NCBI GenBank assembly: GCA_010015805.1
Contig: ML978124.1
Location: 620,001 to 684,000 of the forward strand
Length of the DNA stretch: 64,000 bases
Source: Rhizodiscina lignyota
Taxonomy: Eukaryota
Direction of reading: 5' to 3'
This document shows positions 50,701 to 60,980 of this stretch, in pieces. The notes below the pieces were generated by a model. The model was not told the DNA's origin. It saw nothing but the letters and a program-made list of their open reading frames with translations, and searched no databases. A program made the position numbers and the translations under genes. How positions within the stretch are numbered: the first letter of the stretch is position 1; each line of letters starts with the position of its first letter.

Positions 50701-53530
50701 ATGGACAGCTTTTCATTTGCCAGCTCATCTGATGTCGACCTTCCAGTTTACGTGAAGATGTAAGGAGCGAAAAGCGCACCGCCCATGACGACTTGTAGGC
50801 TTCGAGGCAGCTAATCGACCCGTAGAGATGCGCTTCATGGCTACCAGACGCCGATACCAGCTTCAGTGCTGCTTAAGAGACCCGATCTAAAACATAGAGG
50901 GTCGAATTTGAGGTGCGCATGTTGCCAACATGGGTTGAGGTGGGCTAGCTAACTTACCCAGTCCTCACTCAGAGCTCTATGTGACCGCGCAAATATGGGC
51001 GGACAGCAAGCCTTTGACCGTCCCCGTTCAGACTACGTACAAAGTCTTCAAGACTAGCCGAACCTGGAGTGAATGGCTCACAATACCGATTTCATATGCT
51101 AGTGTACCGCTAAGCTCACAACTGGCCATCACGATCTGGGATCTCTCACCGGCCGGAGGCGAGGATGCACATTTCCATGCGATACCGTTCGGCGGCACCA
51201 CCATACCTCTTTTTGATAAAGACAACACTCTCCAGAAGGGAACTCAGAAGTGTCTGATACATCGGAACAAGGCTGCAGATGGGTTCTCAGATTCGACGAC
51301 ACCGCATATCCTCCCTCTTAGTCGACGACGGGATGAAGACGGGAAGGTACCGGAACAGCCACTAGATGCGCGGGAACAGGAGCTCGAGAGGGTGGAAGCA
51401 TTGATCAAGAAGCGTGAGATGGGAGAGATACCAGAGAACAGGTGGCTGGATCAGTTCGTCTTCCGTCAGTTCGAGAAGCTCGAAAGCGGGCTCAGAAAGG
51501 ATGCGCACCGGAGGCACAGAGCGACCGTACACAATTCAGCGCATGTTAATGGAGCAACTGCAAATGGTAGTGTGCACACATATGAGGAGGACGAGGGCAT
51601 ATTCCACTTATACATCGAGTTTCCTCGCTTCGACCACCCCATTGTCTTCACAGACAAGGAGTATCCAGCACCTCCAATATCTACAATGCAGGCGTCGCAT
51701 TCCGAAGTACGCTTAAGGCCACCTCCTGAAGTTTCTCCTGGGCCTGGCATAGACAGCGGAGATGATCCAGCTGCTGGACGTTTGATCCGGATATATGACC
51801 CTGAGGTCGGGATTCGAGACAACCCAGCAGAGAGCAAGCATAGAAGGCTTGTGCGAAGTCACAGGACCGGCGTCCTTGATCGCGACCTTAAGCCAAATGC
51901 CAAGATTCGAGATGAACTGAATACGATCATGTCCTACGGACCTACACAGGACCTCAACCCCGAAGAGAAGGACTTGGTTTGGAAGTTCAGGCATCATTTG
52001 ACGCGTGACAAGCGGGCATTGACAAAGTTCGTCAAGTCCGTCTCCTGGAGCGACCCAAGTGAAGCGAGGCAAGCAGTGCAGATGCTCCCTAGATGGACCG
52101 AGATTGATGTAGATGATGCACTGGAGCTTCTCGGACCGACATTTGACAATCCCGCTGTACGAGCATACGCTGTTGACAGACTGCGCAAGGCAGATGATGA
52201 AGAGCTACTTCTCTATCTACTGCAGCTCGTACAGGCTCTCAAATTTGAAAAGGTCGCAGTCGCTGAAGACGGTTCTTCAGCAGATGACTCTTCTCTGGCT
52301 CTCTTTCTGGTCACCAGGGCGGCAGATAATTTCCTGCTGGGCAACTTTCTTCATTGGTATTTGATGGTGGAATGTAGTGACAACTCACCCCAGCAAGGGG
52401 ACGTACATCGAAAGCTGTTTGCCAAGGTCGAATACGATTTCATGACCGAGCTCATGAAGCGACCAGAGGGCCCTCAAAATCGCAAGACTCTTCGAAGGCA
52501 AGGTGAACTGATCACTATCCTCTCGAAGATATCAAAAGATGTTCGTCACTCTCGCGACGACCGACCAAGGAAAATTGAGAAGCTCAAGCGCTATCTCGCC
52601 GATCCCAAGAACGAGCTAGTTCAGTTTGACTCGCCACTACCATTACCTCTCGACCCTACAGTTCTGATCACAGGCTGCTTACCAGAACAGTCCAACGTAT
52701 TCAAATCATCCTTATTCCCTCTCCTCATCACCTTCAAGACGTCTACTGGCTCAAACTACCCCGTCATCTTCAAGACCGGTGATGATCTCCGGCAAGATCA
52801 GCTCGTCATTCAAATCATCACCCTCATGGATCGTCTCCTGCGCAAAGAGAATCTCGACCTCAAGCTCACCCCGTACCGCATTCTCGCGACATCACCAATC
52901 GCAGGCGGCGTCCAATTCATCCCGTCATCGTCCGTAACAGCCGCATGTCAGAAGCACAAGACCCTTCTCAACTACCTCCGCCATCACAACCCTGATTCGT
53001 CCGAGCCACTTGGGGTGCGGAAACAGGCCATGGAAACTTACGTCAAGTCCGTTGCAGGCTACTGTGTCATCACCTTCCTTCTCGGCGTAGGCGATCGGCA
53101 CTCCGAAAATCTCCTTCTCACGCCAGACGGTCATTTCTTCCACGCTGACTTTGGCTACATCCTTGGCCGCGACCCAAAGCCCTTCGCACCCCTCTTCAAA
53201 CTCGGTCGCGAGATGGTTGAAGGAATGGGCGGCCTGTCGTCCCCGCACTGGGTGGAGTTCAAGCAGTACTGCTTCACCGCGTACACTGCGCTGAGAAAGA
53301 ATGCAAATTTGATTCTCAATCTGTTTGCTTTGATGGGGCGTGCGAATATTCCGGATATCAGGCTGGAGCCGGATAAGGCCGTTCTGAAGGTGCTGGAGCG
53401 GTTCCATTTGGAGCTGAGCGAGGAAGAGGCGATTCGGTACTTTGAGGGCGTGACGAACGATATGGTCGGCGCAGTTATGCCGGTCGTGATTGATAAGCTG
53501 CATGGCTTCGTGCAAGGTTGGAGGGCATGA
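50701..53530 (+). CDS. VPS34: Class III phosphatidylinositol 3-kinase Vps34
   Basis: Start MDSFSFASS with two 5' introns; C2 and helical domains ('LLYLLQLVQAL'); kinase motifs FKTGDDLRQDQL, GDRHSEN, HADFG. Confidence 0.97.
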
Positions 53531-53932
53531 TTGTAACGAAGGTCGACGTTCCAAATAGACTTGTCTGTAGACAATAAGGCCTTTACGAAGGGCCTTTTCT
53601 TACATCCAAATTACGATGTATTCGTGCACTTAAATATGATAAGAGTCCGCTTAATTTGATTCCTAGCTTTGAATGCCCTTGAGGGTGAAGACAGTCGTAT
53701 ACTTCGCGTCTCGACTTTGATGAATGAGCCTTTATAGAGGTGTAACGGATCGATTAGGTCGGGGTATGGCAAAGTTGAGATGTATTCATACAGACGATAT
53801 TCCAAGCCAGTTCCTGTCAATATACATATGTCGTCTTTTGAGAACCCGTCTACCAAATCCATGCGCCAAAACATGCATTATATGTACACCCTGGAGAGAC
53901 TGACCACTCTACGTGAATCCATCTCTTGCATC

Positions 53933-54304
53933 TCAAAGCGATCCACCTCCTATGAAGCCAGCACTCGACTGCTCCCGCTGCATCCGCGATACGTATTGCT
54001 TGCTGACAGCATTCCACGCTGCCATGTACTTCTCCATGCATGCGCTATAGCAGCCTTCTTCGCTTCGGGAGAGGGAGGTCGATGGTTTCGGGACGCAGCG
54101 TTCGAAGCAATGCTCGTTGACTTTCTGCAAAATGTGTGAACATCATGAATACACCAGCCCTTGATTTTAAGAAGAGCAAGAGAAGCGTGGAAATACCTCT
54201 ATCAGAGCCTTTGCATTGGCGACTGCAGCTTCTTGTCGGACTTGGTTCATGATCGTCGTCTTCGCGTCGCCTCCGGAGAGGGAGCCCGTACTTAATGAGT
54301 CCAT
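53933..54304 (-). CDS. TIM13: Mitochondrial small Tim chaperone Tim13
   Basis: 'QVRQEAAVANAKALIE/KVNEHCFERC...CYSACMEKYMAAWNAVS' twin CX3C motif; intron at ~54125-54196. Confidence 0.92.
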
Positions 54305-54635
54305 TTTGGAAATTTAATGGCGTTCGCAAGGCTCGGAGAATAATAGAGAGAATTGGACTGAAGCTTGAGAGGTTGCGGAGCTAGCTTGATCGTCTATTGC
54401 GGAGGAAAAAGTTCAGGCCAATGATGTCGATGTTCGCGAGAATCTCGGCGCGTGCTCGCGCGCCTTCAAGAGGACAGCTTGAAATTGAACAGCACTTTTG
54501 CATTCGCGTACGCAACCACAACGTCCGAATTCGCCAATTCCGACGCTTGCTCGAGCTCGAGGGGCTGAATTGTGACATCGTCGCGCCCATCTTTGGCCTC
54601 ACTTTTTTGGCGTGGCGCGCGCCTTGAAGTTCAAC

Positions 54636-55850
54636 ATGTTATTGCAGCGACCATGGAACTGGTTATGGCTGCTCGCAGGGAGCTTTATGGCAAGTGCACA
54701 ACAAGAAGGAGATTTTAAGAGTATACCAGTATGTATGCCAATGCAAATTCGTAATATCATGCTAACTTGCGCAGCTTCGGACGCATACGCTCCAGCAGGT
54801 CCGTCTTTCACACCTCGATTCAAATCCCCTCGTATCACATCATATTCCTCTCCAAGCAGCTTCCCCAGACGGATAGGCTAACATTAATACCGTTCCATAG
54901 CCATATCTGGACTCTGATATGCAAAGTCGGTGGTTCGATTTCGGCGGAGACACGCTGGTACGGACAGATTCTTTCATAAGGCTTACTGCGGATAAGCCTT
55001 CAAGAGATGGCTGGCTGTTTTCGCGAGTCCCCCTGACGGCGACGAATTTTGAGGTATGCTCTCTGCCTTCTCTATTTAGCGTTAGAAAGGACAGCTAGTA
55101 ATCCATAGGCCACAGATCGAAGTCGAGTTCAAGATCCATGGCCAGGGCAATCTATACGGCGATGGCATGGCAATGTGGATCACGAAGCAACGCGCACAGC
55201 CAGGCAAAGTTTTTGGATCCATGGACAAGTTTGAAGGGTTGGGTCTCTTCTTCGACACATACAAGAACAACAGGCCTGGGGTTGTTTTCCCATATGTAAT
55301 GGCCATGCTTGGAGACGGGGAGACGGAGTACGATAAGGGCAACGACGGCAAGGCGAACGAACTGGCAGGATGCTCCGTACGTAGCAACCCATGTATAGTA
55401 GAGCGATCATGCTAACTTCATAACTAGGCAAGAGGCATTCGCAACCAGAACTTCCCCACGAAAGCGAAGCTCACCTATTTCCAAGACAAGCAGCTTACAC
55501 TCGAGCTGCAGTACAAGACGGAGGACGAGTGGACGCCCTGCTTTTCTCTTCCTAACATCAAGCTTCCCTCCGTCACCTACCTAGGCTTCTCAGCCGAGAC
55601 CGGCGAGCTCAGCGATAACCACGATATTATTTCCGTTTCGACCAAGAACCTCTACCAACCTGCCGGAAGCAACACCAAGATCTCCAACAAATCACCTGGC
55701 ACCCGCCCGTTCGGCGCAAGCTCTGAGGCAAGAGAAGGCGGAGGCTGGGGTTGGTTTTTCGTCAAGTTTATCATCTTCGGGTTGGTCGTTACGGGCGCCT
55801 ACGTTGGCTTCACTGTCTGGCGATCGCAGAGGAACCGGTCGAGGTTTTGA
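54636..55850 (+). CDS. L-type lectin cargo receptor (VIP36/ERGIC-53/Emp47-like)
   Basis: Signal peptide; 'LYGDGMAMW', 'GLGLFFDTYKN', 'YLGFSAETGELSDNHDI'; C-terminal TM and short ...RSRF tail; four introns. Confidence 0.92.
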
Positions 55851-56009
55851 ATCTTTCAATAGGCCTTTAGGGGATGCGGGATTCGGCATGGTGGGTTCTG
55901 GAGCGTTTCAGCAGATGTCAAAAGTACTCAGTTGTGACAGCATTTCTGGCGCCAGGTGTAGTATTCACTTTGTATATGTACCAAAGTTCAAAATTTTACG
56001 GATAAAATG

Positions 56010-57180
56010 AGTGCCTCATGTAGTAGTTCAAGGTCGGCATGGCTAACAAAAGTGCCGCTTAGGGGAAGCTGGAGACTCCAAGAGGCACAAAATAACTGAG
56101 CAACTTGAAGTCGAACACGTGCAGGTGCTCGTAGCAGTTTGGTGAGGTGTACGGGATACTGTATCCACGGCTCCGTCCATTTCATTCTCCGAAGGAAGTG
56201 AGCCGTGTAACAAGTCGAGGGCAGATGGAAGGCCACCTCAGTGTGCTGTGATTCCCTCATTCTGCGACGGAGATAGTATTTCAATAATGGAGAGCGGAAT
56301 GCAGGGTACTCTCAACATGTTGCCGGATTGACAAACATGCTCGGCCTCGTCCTTTCGAGGCACTTTGCTTCACTGTCACAAGTCATTTTAGCACCAAGTA
56401 GTTTCATATTGGACTGAGCGGCGTGAAATGAATTAAACAATGAATTATCTATCTATGGTGCGGGTCAGATTAGCTCTCTTGTGTTTGCATCAACAACCAC
56501 GGTCGTGAGGCCAGGCTGTTTAGAACTTTGGCTTTTGGTCATTTGTGTCATCACTCCCGCAATGTTGCCTTCCAGCGGCCATCCCCCACACATCGTACTT
56601 CTTGCACCCAGAAAGAGAGCGGAGAAACACGAGGTCCCCAGGTCTTCGCGCTCGGGTTGAAAACTATGATATGACGTTCTCATCAGCAGGCAAAGCCGTC
56701 ACCGTTGTTGTTCATAAAGAACACGCGGGATGCGACTGCGCTTCGAACAGGCACGGTGCTATAGCGTGTCGTCACAGTGCAGAAGACCGGACTCTCCATA
56801 TTCTCTTGCACACTCCCCCTCCAAATGGTCGAAGCAAACGAGGTGTGAAACACCTGACCTGGAAAGCGTGAAAACCACAGTACCCTTCTGATCGCTGCTC
56901 TTCTCATTTGAATTGTCACTCACGCCCCCAATCTCATTGGGTAAAACCCATCCCAGATTCCGACCATAGTGGTCAGACAAAGGGATTGATTGATTGGGAT
57001 ACTCGTGACAAGTGGTGTAGGTAATGGATTGTCTTCCTCAGGGTGACCTAGAAATCGCTGTCAGATAAAGCCAGTAGTCCGCGAGAATGATTTTGACGCA
57101 CCGTGAATTTTCAAGTTTTCTTCTGTAGGGAAGAAACTGTGAAGAAGTTGAGGTTAGAGAAAGGGTTGTGAAGTTTAAGT
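56010..57180 (-). ncRNA. Candidate spliced, highly structured non-coding RNA / snoRNA host transcript
   Basis: No convincing ORF. Pyrimidine-rich 5' end near 57120-57180; canonical intron 57048-57101; multiple long complementary stems whose G-U pairs mostly favour the minus strand. Boundaries approximate. Confidence 0.55.
56459..56561 (-). ncRNA. Box C/D snoRNA (or C/D K-turn module)
   Basis: Minus strand reads TGCGGG-A-GTGATGA (box C, 56554-56548) ... CTGA (box D, 56468-56465)-CCCGCA, giving a perfect 6-bp terminal stem. Internal D'/C'-like CTAA and TTGATGC; length 103 nt. Confidence 0.72.
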
Positions 57181-57374
57181 AGGCTGCAGCCAGTTTCGCG
57201 CTAGTGGCGCCATGCCCGCAGTTCTGCCGACACGCCGACGTCGCCGATTGGACGCTAGTTTGCGGGAGGTTTCGAAACAATCGATACGCACGTGCGGCTT
57301 TCATCTCTTCCATCATTTAACGCATACCATGTATTGATAGATCCGGTTTTGATTTTCATTGAAGCGTTGGTGAG

Positions 57375-58986
57375 ATGTCGTCGTGGGTCTCACGCACGAC
57401 CGGCTCGCACAAAGTGCAGCTCGCAGCAGCAGCCGCAGTTTCATCTGCGCTGACATTTGGTCTCGTGGTGGGATATCAGAAGTTTCGGAGGAAGAAGCGC
57501 GTGGAAGATCTCAAGTCTTCCATTCCCGATATTAGCCAAGAGCATATTGCGACTCAAGTGAGACGAACATCCTCTCAAGTGTATGCTCTATCGCTAACCC
57601 GCAAGCAAAGTTGACCGACTGGGGCGCTGCTTCGGACGTACTCAAACCTAGCAAAGAGGACGAGAGAAGTGCAGCACTGGCATTGCGAGCGCGGCAAGGT
57701 GATTACGATGATGGTAGGTTGACTGCATTGTACTACACAGCCATGCACTAATCATAGCTGCAGAACTTATCCTCGAGCAGCTGGCGCGCAATCGCGTGTT
57801 CCTCACGGATGACGGCCTTTCGAAACTCCGCTCCTCCTTCGTCATCGTTGTTGGCTGTGGTGGTGTAGGCTCGCATGCTGTTGCAGCATTGGCCCGCTCG
57901 GGCGTATCCACTCTTCGCCTGATTGATTTTGACCAGGTCACGTTGTCAAGTCTCAATCGACACGCTGTAGCTACGCTCGCAGATGTCGGTACTCCGAAGG
58001 TGCACTGCTTGCGAAAACGGCTAGAGCAGATCACTCCGTGGACTCACTTTGACTGTCGGAACGAACTCTTCAGCGAACAAGCTGCGGATCGGCTGTTGGG
58101 AGCATATGAAGGGAGAATGCCCGACTACGTTGTCGATGCAATTGACAACATTGACAGCAAAGTTTTCTTACTGCAATATTGCCACGGAAATGGCATTCCT
58201 GTAGTCTCATCAATGGGTGCAGGATGCAAGTCAGATCCGACGCGAATCTTCATCGGAGATATTTCCGCCAGTACGGACGATCCTTTATCAAGGTCAACCC
58301 GGCGGCGCCTGCGGATGTTGGGTGTCAAAGAGGGCATACCTGTCGTGTATTCGAGCGAAAAGCCTGGTCCGGGAAAGGCGCAGTTACTACAGTTGCCTGA
58401 AGAGGAGTTTAAAAAGGGAGGAGTAGGCGAGCTGGGCGTCCTCCCAGATTTCCGGGTGCGAATACTACCTGTATTGGGCACAATGCCGGCAATGTTTGGA
58501 CTAACAGTTGCGAACCATGTCATTCTTGAAGTCACTGGCTATCCGCACGACTACCTACCAAGCAAGGGCCGTGAGAAGATGTATGAGAGCATTCTGAACA
58601 ACGTGCAGGCGCTGGAAGAGCGTCTCGCTCGTACATCTGGGCAGGATCCGGTGGGGGTACGAGTCCCAATCACGCTCGACGATGTGGGATATATTGTGGA
58701 GGAAGTCTTCCGCGGTCGTAGCGCTGTAAGCGGATTGCCGTCGCGGTTGACATTGACGAGATGGACTGCGCCCGAGGAGGATTTTATTGACGATACCATT
58801 GAAGGACAGAAGTGTTCAAAGGTACGAATGCGAGATTTGGTCTGCATGACAAAGGATGAAGCGGCAAGACACGAAACAGAGATCTTGAAGGGGAGCAAAA
58901 ATGTGGAAGATCTGTATTCGCCGCAGATTGTTACGCTCGTGCAGTCGAGGCTTGAAGAAGAAGCGTACTATGAGCAGTTCAGATAG
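57375..58986 (+). CDS. tRNA threonylcarbamoyladenosine dehydratase (ThiF/E1-like, Tcd1/Tcd2 family)
   Basis: N-terminal TM; 'VVGCGGVGS', 'DFDQVTLSSLNRH', 'VVDAIDNIDSK', 'SSMGAGCKSDPT', 'VRILPVLGTMP'. Introns 57558-57610 and 57714-57762. Confidence 0.93.
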
Positions 58987-59147
58987 TAAATACAGCAGAG
59001 GATACCTTTCAGTCTCTAGCATGTCTTGAATCTTGGTGCAACGTGTCAAGATGTGCTAGTGAGGCTGATCTGTAGAATGTGTTTTATGTATGTCTAGCAT
59101 TTAAGTAAACTTGTACTGAAACTTTTAGTGAGGCGTTGAAACAAGCC

Positions 59148-60980
59148 TCAAATGTAATTGCCTTGAGGCTTCACAGACTTTTCAATGTCTACATGAGTCT
59201 CCTCCGGCGCCTCCGAACCGGTAGGACTATCTCCGCTCAAGCTTGCATCGGCTTCTCGGAGATTTGTCGGGAACGGGAAAGCCAAGTACATAAGGTAGTA
59301 AGAAAGGCCTGAAAGTACTAAGCCGTCAAGCCACGACAGTGTGTAGAATGCCTGAATCCCGCGGCTCACAGAAATTTCTGGATTGATATTATGGATCAGA
59401 CCCGGGAGCAGCGGTGCCATGCCGATCAAGAGAGCCGCTAACGCACGAGGATTGACGCCACCTGTGAACCAGTACAATCCACCCGGGCGATACAGTTGGT
59501 AGACGTTAAGGCCACCACTACGGCGGCGCACAAGCCAGTAGTCGGACAACAAGATGCCAATAAGCGGACCAAGGAAGACCGTATATCCGTTAAGGAAAGC
59601 AAAGAAACGTTGTGCTTTTGCTTGTAGAAGCCATGGACAGATTGCCCAGCCGAGCACAGCACAAATGAGCTGACCCCGGCGGATGTTGATATATTTTGGA
59701 AACATACCAGTCAGATCGTTGGCGAACGGAATTGAGTTTCCTGCCACGTTTGTTGCGATATTGGCGAAGGCGAAGCAGAAGCCTGCGAAGAATTTACCTG
59801 CACGGTTGTCCCAGAGGGCGACGACGTCCAGTGGATTCCAAAGAACTTGCCCGTAGATGACTTGAGCGGATGCGGCCATAACTGTACCGAGCAGTTCAGT
59901 AAGAGTAATCATGACAGGTAGCATGGCCTGCATTTGCCATGCCCTTTTTCGGTCGTGCGCATATCGAGTGATGTCTGACATGTTGATGGCAAAGGTGGCA
60001 TTGCCGGATATCGAAGCCGTGATTGTGAGACAAAACGCGTAACCAACAGACCAACCACCCTGAATGTTGTTAGGGATTCTGAAAAGTGGGCCCCAGCCGT
60101 GCGCTGCAGTAAGGGCCCATGTAAAGAGCGCTACGCCGAAGAATGGCATGATTGCACACTTGATGATGAACATCCAACGTAGTGCAGGAATGCTCAAGAA
60201 CAGGAACGGGATGGAGATGAGCCAGAAGAGGAAGAATGACAAGAGCTCAGGCGCCGTAATGAATGCGCTCTCAGGAAGAGAGTTGATATGCCAGCTCTTA
60301 AAGCTAATGTCCGCATGTCAGAATCGGCGAATTTCCACACGAATGAACAGTACTCACCTTGGCCAGATCGCTTCGAGCATACATCTAACTGCATCGCCGC
60401 CCACTGAAGATTGAACCCCATACCAGATTACACATACAACCGCGCGGATCACTAACTATCCGTCAGCTACATCCAAGGCCCTCCAGGAATATCTTTGCAT
60501 ACCCATTGCTACGTATGCACCTTTCATACCAAAGCTCGATCGCGATATGACGGGGAAGTTCAAGCCGTATTTCGAGCCAAGGTAACCAGAGCTCATTGTT
60601 GGAAGCGTAACGAGCAGATTGCCGACGAGACATGCCACTATAGTGAGGCCGGGGTTCAGCCCAAGAGCAACCGCACTGCTGGGCGTTTCAAGCTGTGCTA
60701 CATTAAAGCCCTCTGCAATCCAGAAGCCACCAACATGATACCTATTAGAAGTGTCAGCTAGCGCCCTACCTCATATATGAACCACCTCTTCACAGAAAGA
60801 TCCTTTTCAAAATCAACTCATTGGAAATAGAGATTGGCCATACCATTCCCACTTCTTCCGCTCTGTTGGTACTGGATCCAAATCTTTGTTGCTGTACCTA
60901 GCTGCTTCTGGCTCGCTGGTAAAGGATCCTTTCTCCGGCTCGAGCTTAATCCGCTCGTGAAATGACCGGAGCGCATTCAT
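59148..60980 (-). CDS. NCS1 (Fur4/Dal4-type) nucleobase/allantoin/hydantoin permease
   Basis: 'YSNKDLDPVP..RKKW', 'FPVISRSSFG..G', 'NMSDITRYA', 'PKYINIRRG', 'ICPW', 'LSDYW', 'GVNPRALAA'; three introns. Confidence 0.93.

Follow-up and report, generated by a model that had tools for sequence, protein, structure and literature searches.

The window analyzed here is a stretch of 64,000 nucleotides of eukaryotic, fungus-like DNA from Rhizodiscina lignyota (contig ML978124.1). It contains a 1.5-kb intergenic gap between a plus-strand gene for a legume-like lectin, which ends at position 55850, and a gene of the ThiF family (TCD-like), which starts at about 57375 and whose open reading frame (ORF) resumes past an intron downstream of that start. 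On the minus strand of this gap we found three units with the features of box C/D small nucleolar RNAs (snoRNAs), designated Z, A and B in the order in which they would be transcribed. The region is probably a non-coding RNA polymerase II gene that would yield these three snoRNAs. It appears to be a spliced, polycistronic snoRNA host, as predicted from comparison with related loci, in which the snoRNAs unusually lie in an exon and not in introns. The predicted features are these, read along the minus strand:

57102 to 57180, minus strand: putative non-coding first exon, placed by the 5′ splice site at 57101; its outer end, 57180, is a guess of an earlier, sequence-only reading of the region
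57048 to 57101, minus strand: predicted 54-nt spliceosomal intron, with GTGCGT at 57101, TCTGAC at 57065 and a TAG ending at 57048
56882 to 57044, minus strand: predicted box C/D snoRNA Z, 163 nt, with homologues in 20 distinct loci including the window
57044 to 57041 with 56885 to 56882, minus strand: terminal stem of Z, ACCC with GGGT
57040 to 57035, minus strand: C box of Z, TGAGGA
56913 to 57011, minus strand: internal hairpin of Z, between the D′ region and the C′ box
56907 to 56901, minus strand: C′ box of Z, ATGAGAA
56900 to 56891, minus strand: D guide of Z
56890 to 56887, minus strand: D box of Z, CAGA
56789 to 56881, minus strand: Z-A spacer, 93 nt, without conservation in distant relatives; 56828 to 56881 are identical in a contig of the public run X2
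56641 to 56788, minus strand: predicted box C/D snoRNA A, 148 nt, with guide, boxes and terminal complementarity in relatives
56788 to 56782 with 56647 to 56641, minus strand: terminal stem of A, GGTCTTC with GAAGACC
56775 to 56769, minus strand: C box of A, GTGACGA
56685 to 56680, minus strand: C′ box of A, TGATGA
56666 to 56656, minus strand: D guide of A, TAGTTTTCAAC
56655 to 56652, minus strand: D box of A, CCGA
56562 to 56640, minus strand: A-B spacer, 79 nt, without conservation; bridged collinearly by a contig of the public run X1
56459 to 56561, minus strand: predicted box C/D snoRNA B, 103 nt, with covariation in a 19-sequence alignment
56561 to 56556 with 56464 to 56459, minus strand: terminal stem of B, 6 bp
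56554 to 56548, minus strand: C box of B, GTGATGA, invariant in the 19 sequences
within B, minus strand: D′ guide, AAAAGCCAAAGTT
within B, minus strand: internal stem, 5 bp, CAGCC with GGTTG
within B, minus strand: C′ box, TGATGC
within B, minus strand: D guide, AAGAGAGCTAAT
56468 to 56465, minus strand: D box of B, CTGA, invariant in the 19 sequences
55930 to 56458, minus strand: tail, unconserved, carrying the 3′ stems of the sequence-only reading

Conservation of the three predicted snoRNA units

Relatives were fetched by means of the ThiF/TCD-like protein, which gave 80 metagenome loci at 62 to 76% protein identity. At least 2 kb upstream of the protein match is present in 49 of them. The snoRNA counts are based on about 20 distinct loci, the window included. 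What these loci have kept are the boxes and the short guides; the intervening sequence has diverged, and the terminal stems covary. The order Z-A-B and the strand are constant wherever all three units are present.

We scanned 55850-57400 for conserved 11-mers, seeking each word in the contexts of 10 relatives with at most one mismatch. Only three blocks, 11-21 nt in length, emerged from the 1.5 kb: 56668-56655, 56538-56523 and 56484-56464. The last two correspond to the D′ and D guides of B. The opposite-strand control of the scan gave no conserved block. At the distance of these relatives, the scan found no conservation of the first exon, the intron sequence, the long hairpin, the pyrimidine-rich tract or the 3′ 480 nt. 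A blastn search of the whole intergenic region against the relatives returned a single match, 56465-56504, which lies inside B. B was also found in 15 loci by nhmmer with the C/D module, and it is the only unit matched by blastn or nhmmer.

B is the sole strict C/D candidate with a stem of at least 5 bp in the whole 64 kb. In its alignment, AGCCAAA (D′) and GAGAGCT.ATCTGA (D) show little or no variation, the flanks are variable and the inner part ranges in length from roughly 20 to 100 nt. Paired cells amount to 91.9%, and changes on both sides are seen in all 11 pairs, those of the terminal stem and those of the internal stem alike. None of 500 shuffles reaches any of these measures, and slid controls are at most 46% paired. 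B is therefore predicted to be a box C/D snoRNA from its boxes, its covarying terminal stem and its conserved antisense elements. The sequence-only reading had recognized a C/D module at exactly this place, and the covariation in relatives bears it out; two further C/D units, Z and A, had been read as other structures.

In three further loci (L030, L033 and L035), the C box, D′ guide and terminal stem of B are kept and the sequence before the D box is different, which suggests that one lineage has switched or lost this guide. The locus L057 has a second, very short arrangement of C box, AAAGCCAAAA and CTGA elsewhere, with the core of B's D′-type guide; it is possibly a paralogue or a fragment. 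Matching the guides of B and Z by hand to rRNA, U2 and U6 gave only fits of 7-9 bp, which were discarded. The guides of B do not seem to fit the elements of U14.

The 11-nt guide of A is nearly invariant in a 21-row alignment. The conserved block reads TAGTTTTCAA(T/C) and is followed by CGGA, CCGA or CTGA. In relatives, a C′-like box lies about 12-20 nt before this block and a C box of the form (R/Y)TGA(C/G)GA lies 60-190 nt before it. Complementary flanks enclose the unit, and this architecture recurs in 18-20 distinct loci. The terminal complementarity averages 5.39 bp between cognate flanks vs 4.66 ± 0.24 bp in permuted ones, a value reached by 7 of 2000 permutations. The test is weaker for A because most relatives share a GCGC stem. 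Among the loci with at least 2 kb upstream, 28 of 49 contain the A motif. With its C and D boxes, a terminal stem and a conserved antisense element beside D, A is predicted to be a box C/D snoRNA. The sequence-only reading had drawn a multibranch domain at 56610-56822; a unit does exist there, and it corresponds to A. As larger folds, this domain and the adjoining three-way junction (together 56605-56905) are no better than shuffles (z = -0.10).

The guide of A may form 11 bp, one of them G-U, with the site in 18S rRNA that yeast snR54 and human U59 serve. In the Neurospora crassa survey (PMC2780460), that site is 18S-Am971 and is guided from the D′ element of CD49. The element in A sits at D, whereas that of CD49 sits at D′, which calls for caution about the fit to 18S rRNA.

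The third unit, Z, was first seen in the relatives' printed upstream flanks. There, a C box is followed by a D′ region (TCAC...GAGCT) that is short and conserved, then by a long hairpin that varies, and lastly by a C′ box ATGACTGA, a guide and a degenerate D box. The D guide of relatives, GAACAGAAAT, is conserved as GAACAGA(A/G)AT. The 11-mer scan missed Z because the window's copy has TGAGGA, ATGAGAA and CAGA as boxes and departs from the guide consensus. The terminal stem of Z covaries strongly and differs among loci (TCCCA/TGGGA, CTTC/GAAG, GTCTC/GAGAC and AACCCCC/GGGGGTT, with ACCC/GGGT in the window). The cognate mean helix is 4.9 bp vs 3.25 ± 0.26 bp when flanks are exchanged between loci, and none of 2000 permutations gives a value as high.

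The minus-strand hairpin at 57011-56913 is exceptionally stable: its z-score is -3.72, none of 200 shuffles folds as well, and the plus strand of that stretch has z = -0.58. A contig of the X2 run differs from the window at several positions of the hairpin in ways that preserve it. Both sides of one pair have changed from U-A to C-G (56963 and 56973), and a U-A pair is kept as U-G (56913); the other two substitutions (56943 and 56980) are in loops, as is an insertion of 3 nt. At the contig's depth of 2.5, single differences may be errors. From its position in the relatives, the long hairpin is the variable internal hairpin of the predicted Z and not a domain of a larger RNA. The stability that had been claimed for this four-tier hairpin is thus real, whereas its status as a separate domain is not upheld. 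Similarly, part of the three-way junction proposed at about 56830-56900 belongs to Z. We considered whether the hairpin and the next stem could form an H/ACA snoRNA. This was rejected by eye, as the internal loop leaves too little space for a pseudouridylation pocket and no ACA lies 3 nt before a plausible 3′ end.

Several observations weigh against three functional snoRNAs in one transcript. The strict C/D pattern alone would occur by chance about 0.5 times per 64 kb, and so the case rests on the relatives. The A motif is absent from 21 of the 49 loci with sufficient upstream sequence, two of which end at the locus edge. The D box of A is CCGA, not CUGA, and its C box GTGACGA is off consensus. 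The boxes of Z are weak, with CAGA as the D box in the window and CTTA, CCTA or CGCA in some relatives. The window's D guide of Z is off the relatives' consensus at 3 of 10 positions, and its D′ region has no continuous conserved guide. Z may therefore be decaying, or may not guide methylation. Searches of Rfam with Z, A or B alone, and in 8 relatives, gave no family. Splicing, co-transcription and the mature ends are predictions.

Parts of the stretch are contained in three public runs, the RNA libraries X1 and X2 and the run X3, which contains all of it and is probably the source run. Only 1 of 15,746 X3 contigs lies on the 7.5 kb searched, so the region is single-copy in X3 and not a repeat. 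From X1 there is one identical contig of 246 nt (56538-56783); one end of it lies 5 nt within A, the other in B, and it covers the spacer between them. X2 has one contig, 97% identical over 56828-57034, that covers most of Z. The X1 contig is a weak hint of a collinear A-B precursor. Against this, the contigs of both libraries are strandless, with a depth of about 2, and may derive from contaminating DNA. Neither library has a contig on the flanking genes within 53000-60500, which at this depth is uninformative on relative expression. No metagenome contig matched an exact pattern of 22 nt taken from the part that is invariant in X2.

A predicted leader intron and a probable shared exon

The 54-nt intron of the sequence-only reading has its signals in place, and its position is retained in relatives. 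In the window, its 3′ splice site is 3 nt upstream of Z. A branch site and a YAG ending at most 25 nt (mostly 0-7 nt) upstream of the terminal stem of Z occur in 16 of 20 distinct loci, and 15 of these 16 also have a 5′ splice site 34-123 nt further up. Controls at random positions gave 247 of 4000 (6.2%) and 5.2%. A stricter intron pattern was found in 10 of 21 upstream regions on the snoRNA strand vs 0 of 21 on the other strand. The leader intron, whose splicing is predicted, is thus conserved in relatives and abuts Z.

No recognizable intron encloses any of the three snoRNAs. Of 20 loci, none has a branch site with a YAG ending at most 25 nt ahead of A; for B, 1 locus of 18 has one. Hexamers resembling a 5′ splice site within 14 nt are few, both after Z (3 of 20 loci) and after A (again 3 of 20). 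Given the lack of 3′ splice sites before A and B and the few 5′ sites after Z and A, the three snoRNAs appear, in most lineages, to share one exon behind the leader intron. In some lineages, short snoRNA-free introns have been added within a spacer.

The best surviving alternative is that the three snoRNAs are real but intron-encoded, with weak or unusual splice signals and with exons that are tiny or lost ('complex introns'). The few hexamers just mentioned, and a GTACGA in the window's A-B spacer, could be signals of this kind. There is also precedent: 45 of 55 N. crassa box C/D snoRNAs are intronic, according to that survey (PMC2780460), and juxtaposed introns without intercalating exons are reported for fungal snoRNA clusters in a second study (PMC3596301). 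Nevertheless, the near-absence of 3′ splice sites before A and B argues against such introns, as does the fact that the single strongly conserved 3′ splice site is upstream of Z, not downstream. The spacers are also short (79-93 nt), and the X1 contig follows the genomic sequence straight through the A-B spacer. On balance, we consider an intronic origin unlikely.

It is less likely still that the units are three independent genes with their own promoters. In N. crassa, nine C/D snoRNAs are independently transcribed, and cluster V has a putative promoter before each snoRNA, yet the two were shown to be co-transcribed (PMC2780460). The spacers in the window, and those of 74-220 nt in relatives, offer little space for promoters and terminators, and they contain no conserved sequence. 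Moreover, order and strand are fixed in all loci, and one RNA-library contig bridges A and B. Returning to a polycistronic host, the features that may point to it are the common strand, the fixed order, the short unconserved spacers and the lack of conserved coding capacity.

If this host is transcribed as predicted, its transcription would start in a stretch of roughly 270 bp that it shares with the ThiF/TCD-like gene, its divergent neighbor. A short first exon and the 54-nt intron would follow, as suggested by the splice signals and by the retention of the intron in relatives. The second exon would contain Z, A and B in tandem, separated by the 93- and 79-nt spacers; the genes, their order and their strand are supported by conservation and covariation. 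By analogy with established snoRNA biology, Snu13, Nop56, Nop58 and fibrillarin would bind the kink-turn that the C/D boxes and the terminal stem form in each snoRNA, and nucleases would remove leader, spacers and tail, as in established polycistronic precursors. The conserved element of 10-14 nt beside D or D′ would then pair with a target RNA, which for box C/D guides takes 10-21 bp of complementarity, and direct 2′-O-methylation 5 nt from the box. This follows the rule that the methylated position is the fifth upstream of D or D′, as stated in the N. crassa survey (PMC2780460).

The tight contact between the acceptor and Z suggests a more speculative idea, namely that the spliceosome, not an RNase III, opens the precursor. 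We regard this as a long shot. A snoRNP (the snoRNA with its proteins) at the acceptor could hinder exon ligation, and the capped exon would be lost at the first splicing step. Once the intron is debranched, a 5′-3′ exonuclease could trim to the snoRNP boundary and thereby create the mature 5′ end of an exon-borne snoRNA. In fission yeast, 'spliceosomal cleavage' forms the 3′ end of telomerase RNA. A precursor opened by the spliceosome, if real, would be the 5′-end counterpart of that reaction. The locus is a simple system for asking how precursors of exon-borne snoRNAs are opened.

Folding, coding capacity and known families

The sequence-only reading had described a heavily base-paired RNA of about 1.2 kb and proposed, as one of two explanations, a large structured RNA of unassigned family. 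Such an RNA would act as a unit, for example resembling telomerase RNA or serving as a scaffold, and its C/D motifs would be protein-binding modules. The one exceptionally stable hairpin and the lack of a known family could be taken in its favor. However, the minimum free energy of the whole region is alike on both strands (-367.8 vs -361.8 kcal/mol). Sliding z-scores (150 nt) are ordinary except for 56900-57049 and 56000-56224, both on the minus strand, and B has z = -0.56. Apart from the hairpin, folding is no better than that of shuffles. The sequence between the units and in the 3′ 480 nt is unconserved, and each unit has a covarying terminal stem of its own that closes it. We therefore think it very improbable that the region is one structured RNA; it does not represent a new class of large structured RNAs. 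The other explanation, a polycistronic snoRNA host, gains support from the three C/D units in relatives, their fixed order and the conserved leader intron.

No 7- or 8-mer of the CCCTAA (TTAGGG-type) series occurs on either strand of 55900-57300, in agreement with the earlier statement that a telomerase template is absent, although the organism's own repeat may differ. The 3′ stems that had been proposed at 56011-56361 fare poorly: for 56005-56245, z is -1.27 and 23 of 200 shuffles fold equally well, and these stems lack conservation in relatives. The tail as a whole has no conserved 11-mer in the 10 relatives' contexts, and a relaxed C/D scan found no fourth snoRNA in it. In relatives, only about 90-310 nt separate B from the lectin stop codon. 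The Sm-like AATTTTGA and the pyrimidine-rich tract that had been pointed out are both present in the sequence; neither is conserved in relatives.

That the region is a small protein-coding gene is hardly conceivable: there are three ATG-initiated minus-strand ORFs (72, 74 and 90 residues), but none of the 24 stop-to-stop ORFs on both strands has a Pfam domain, the longest has no homologue among proteins of near its length, the conserved blocks are short and not codon-like, and the five X2-contig substitutions, placed by hand, are not at the third codon positions of an open frame. The short ORFs had been judged non-coding before, with the same outcome.

Against Rfam 15, the window has no match at gathering thresholds and, below them, only a chance-level match to a long non-coding RNA, consistent with the earlier view that no known family can be assigned. 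The best scores of snoRNA families are 8.8-14.5 bits vs thresholds of 38-41 and rest on the boxes alone. The nearest C/D families are SNORD41 (14.5 bits) and SNORD89 (12.2 bits), each with a gathering score of 41. The units share C and D boxes and a terminal stem with such families, but scores far below threshold do not allow membership. A literature search with the guide strings gave only unrelated primer coincidences. Many Pezizomycotina snoRNA families have been catalogued (PMC5824354). Z, A and B were set against published fungal catalogues by description and not by sequence, and may already be named there.

Among known hosts, those of N. crassa are the closest comparison. The survey of that fungus describes six box C/D clusters, five of them in UHG-like non-coding hosts that have canonical introns, short ORFs and alternative splicing; five of the six clusters are shared with yeast, and one snoRNA (CD6) is encoded in an exon (PMC2780460). 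As in those clusters, C/D snoRNAs in the window are in tandem on the same strand, and the host has short unconserved ORFs and a canonical short intron. Unlike those clusters, which mostly have one snoRNA per intron, there is no enclosing intron here, and the widely conserved intron ends just before Z. Intron gain, intron loss and exon loss are on record for fungal snoRNA clusters in the study cited above (PMC3596301).

The mammalian hosts UHG and GAS5 are also non-coding and spliced, with only the snoRNAs conserved, as we see here. Their snoRNAs are strictly intronic, one per intron, whereas none in the window is enclosed by a recognizable intron. Polycistronic units of Saccharomyces cerevisiae are processed by the RNase III Rnt1 and exonucleases. 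The predicted exon resembles these units in that C/D snoRNAs are in tandem in an unspliced stretch, from which they are released by endo- and exonucleases in yeast. It differs from them in having a leader intron, as the yeast units have none. Five such clusters are known in S. cerevisiae, e.g. snR190-U14, according to the N. crassa survey (PMC2780460).

On the predicted structure, the locus is the same kind of gene as the UHG-like hosts and differs in its unenclosed snoRNAs and in the contact between acceptor and Z. Such rows of snoRNAs are already known from filamentous fungi, and the result is therefore a useful annotation and not a new kind of RNA. It turns an unexplained 1.5-kb gap into three annotated RNA genes and an intron. 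The three box C/D families are widespread in relatives and absent from Rfam 15, and would be candidates for entry there after target prediction against the rRNA and snRNAs of the species. The locus also offers a clean example of snoRNAs that are seemingly exonic behind a conserved leader intron, an exception in filamentous fungi.

Genomic neighborhood

The head-to-head placement of the cluster with the ThiF/TCD-like gene, remarked on in the sequence-only reading, is real and is common to 17 of 24 related loci. The cluster is beside the 3′ end of the lectin gene in 14 of the 24 (12 convergent, 2 tandem), and seven loci have both neighbors arranged as in the window. In five loci (L003, L004, L029, L052 and L069), the lectin-snoRNA block has the reverse orientation with respect to the ThiF/TCD-like gene, and in two (L026 and L041) the cluster is in tandem, downstream of the lectin gene. 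The neighborhood has thus been rearranged several times, with the Z-A-B order retained.

A palindromic CACGTG (E-box type) at 57289-57294 lies in the roughly 270 bp between the 5′ splice site of the host and the start codon of the ThiF/TCD-like gene. It is possibly a shared promoter element of the divergent pair.

At the other end, GAACGCTA(T) recurs on the snoRNA strand, downstream of B and 40-130 nt past the lectin stop codon, in five loci (L003, L005, L007, L052 and L069). Its counterpart in the window is the similar word GAAACGCTC on the minus strand at 55901-55909. This element may belong to the 3′ end signals of the lectin gene rather than to the snoRNA gene.

Two ORFs further away were named from their translations alone. 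The long plus-strand ORF at 50939-53530 resembles a Vps34-type phosphatidylinositol 3-kinase, and the minus-strand ORF at 59148-60317 resembles a membrane transporter.

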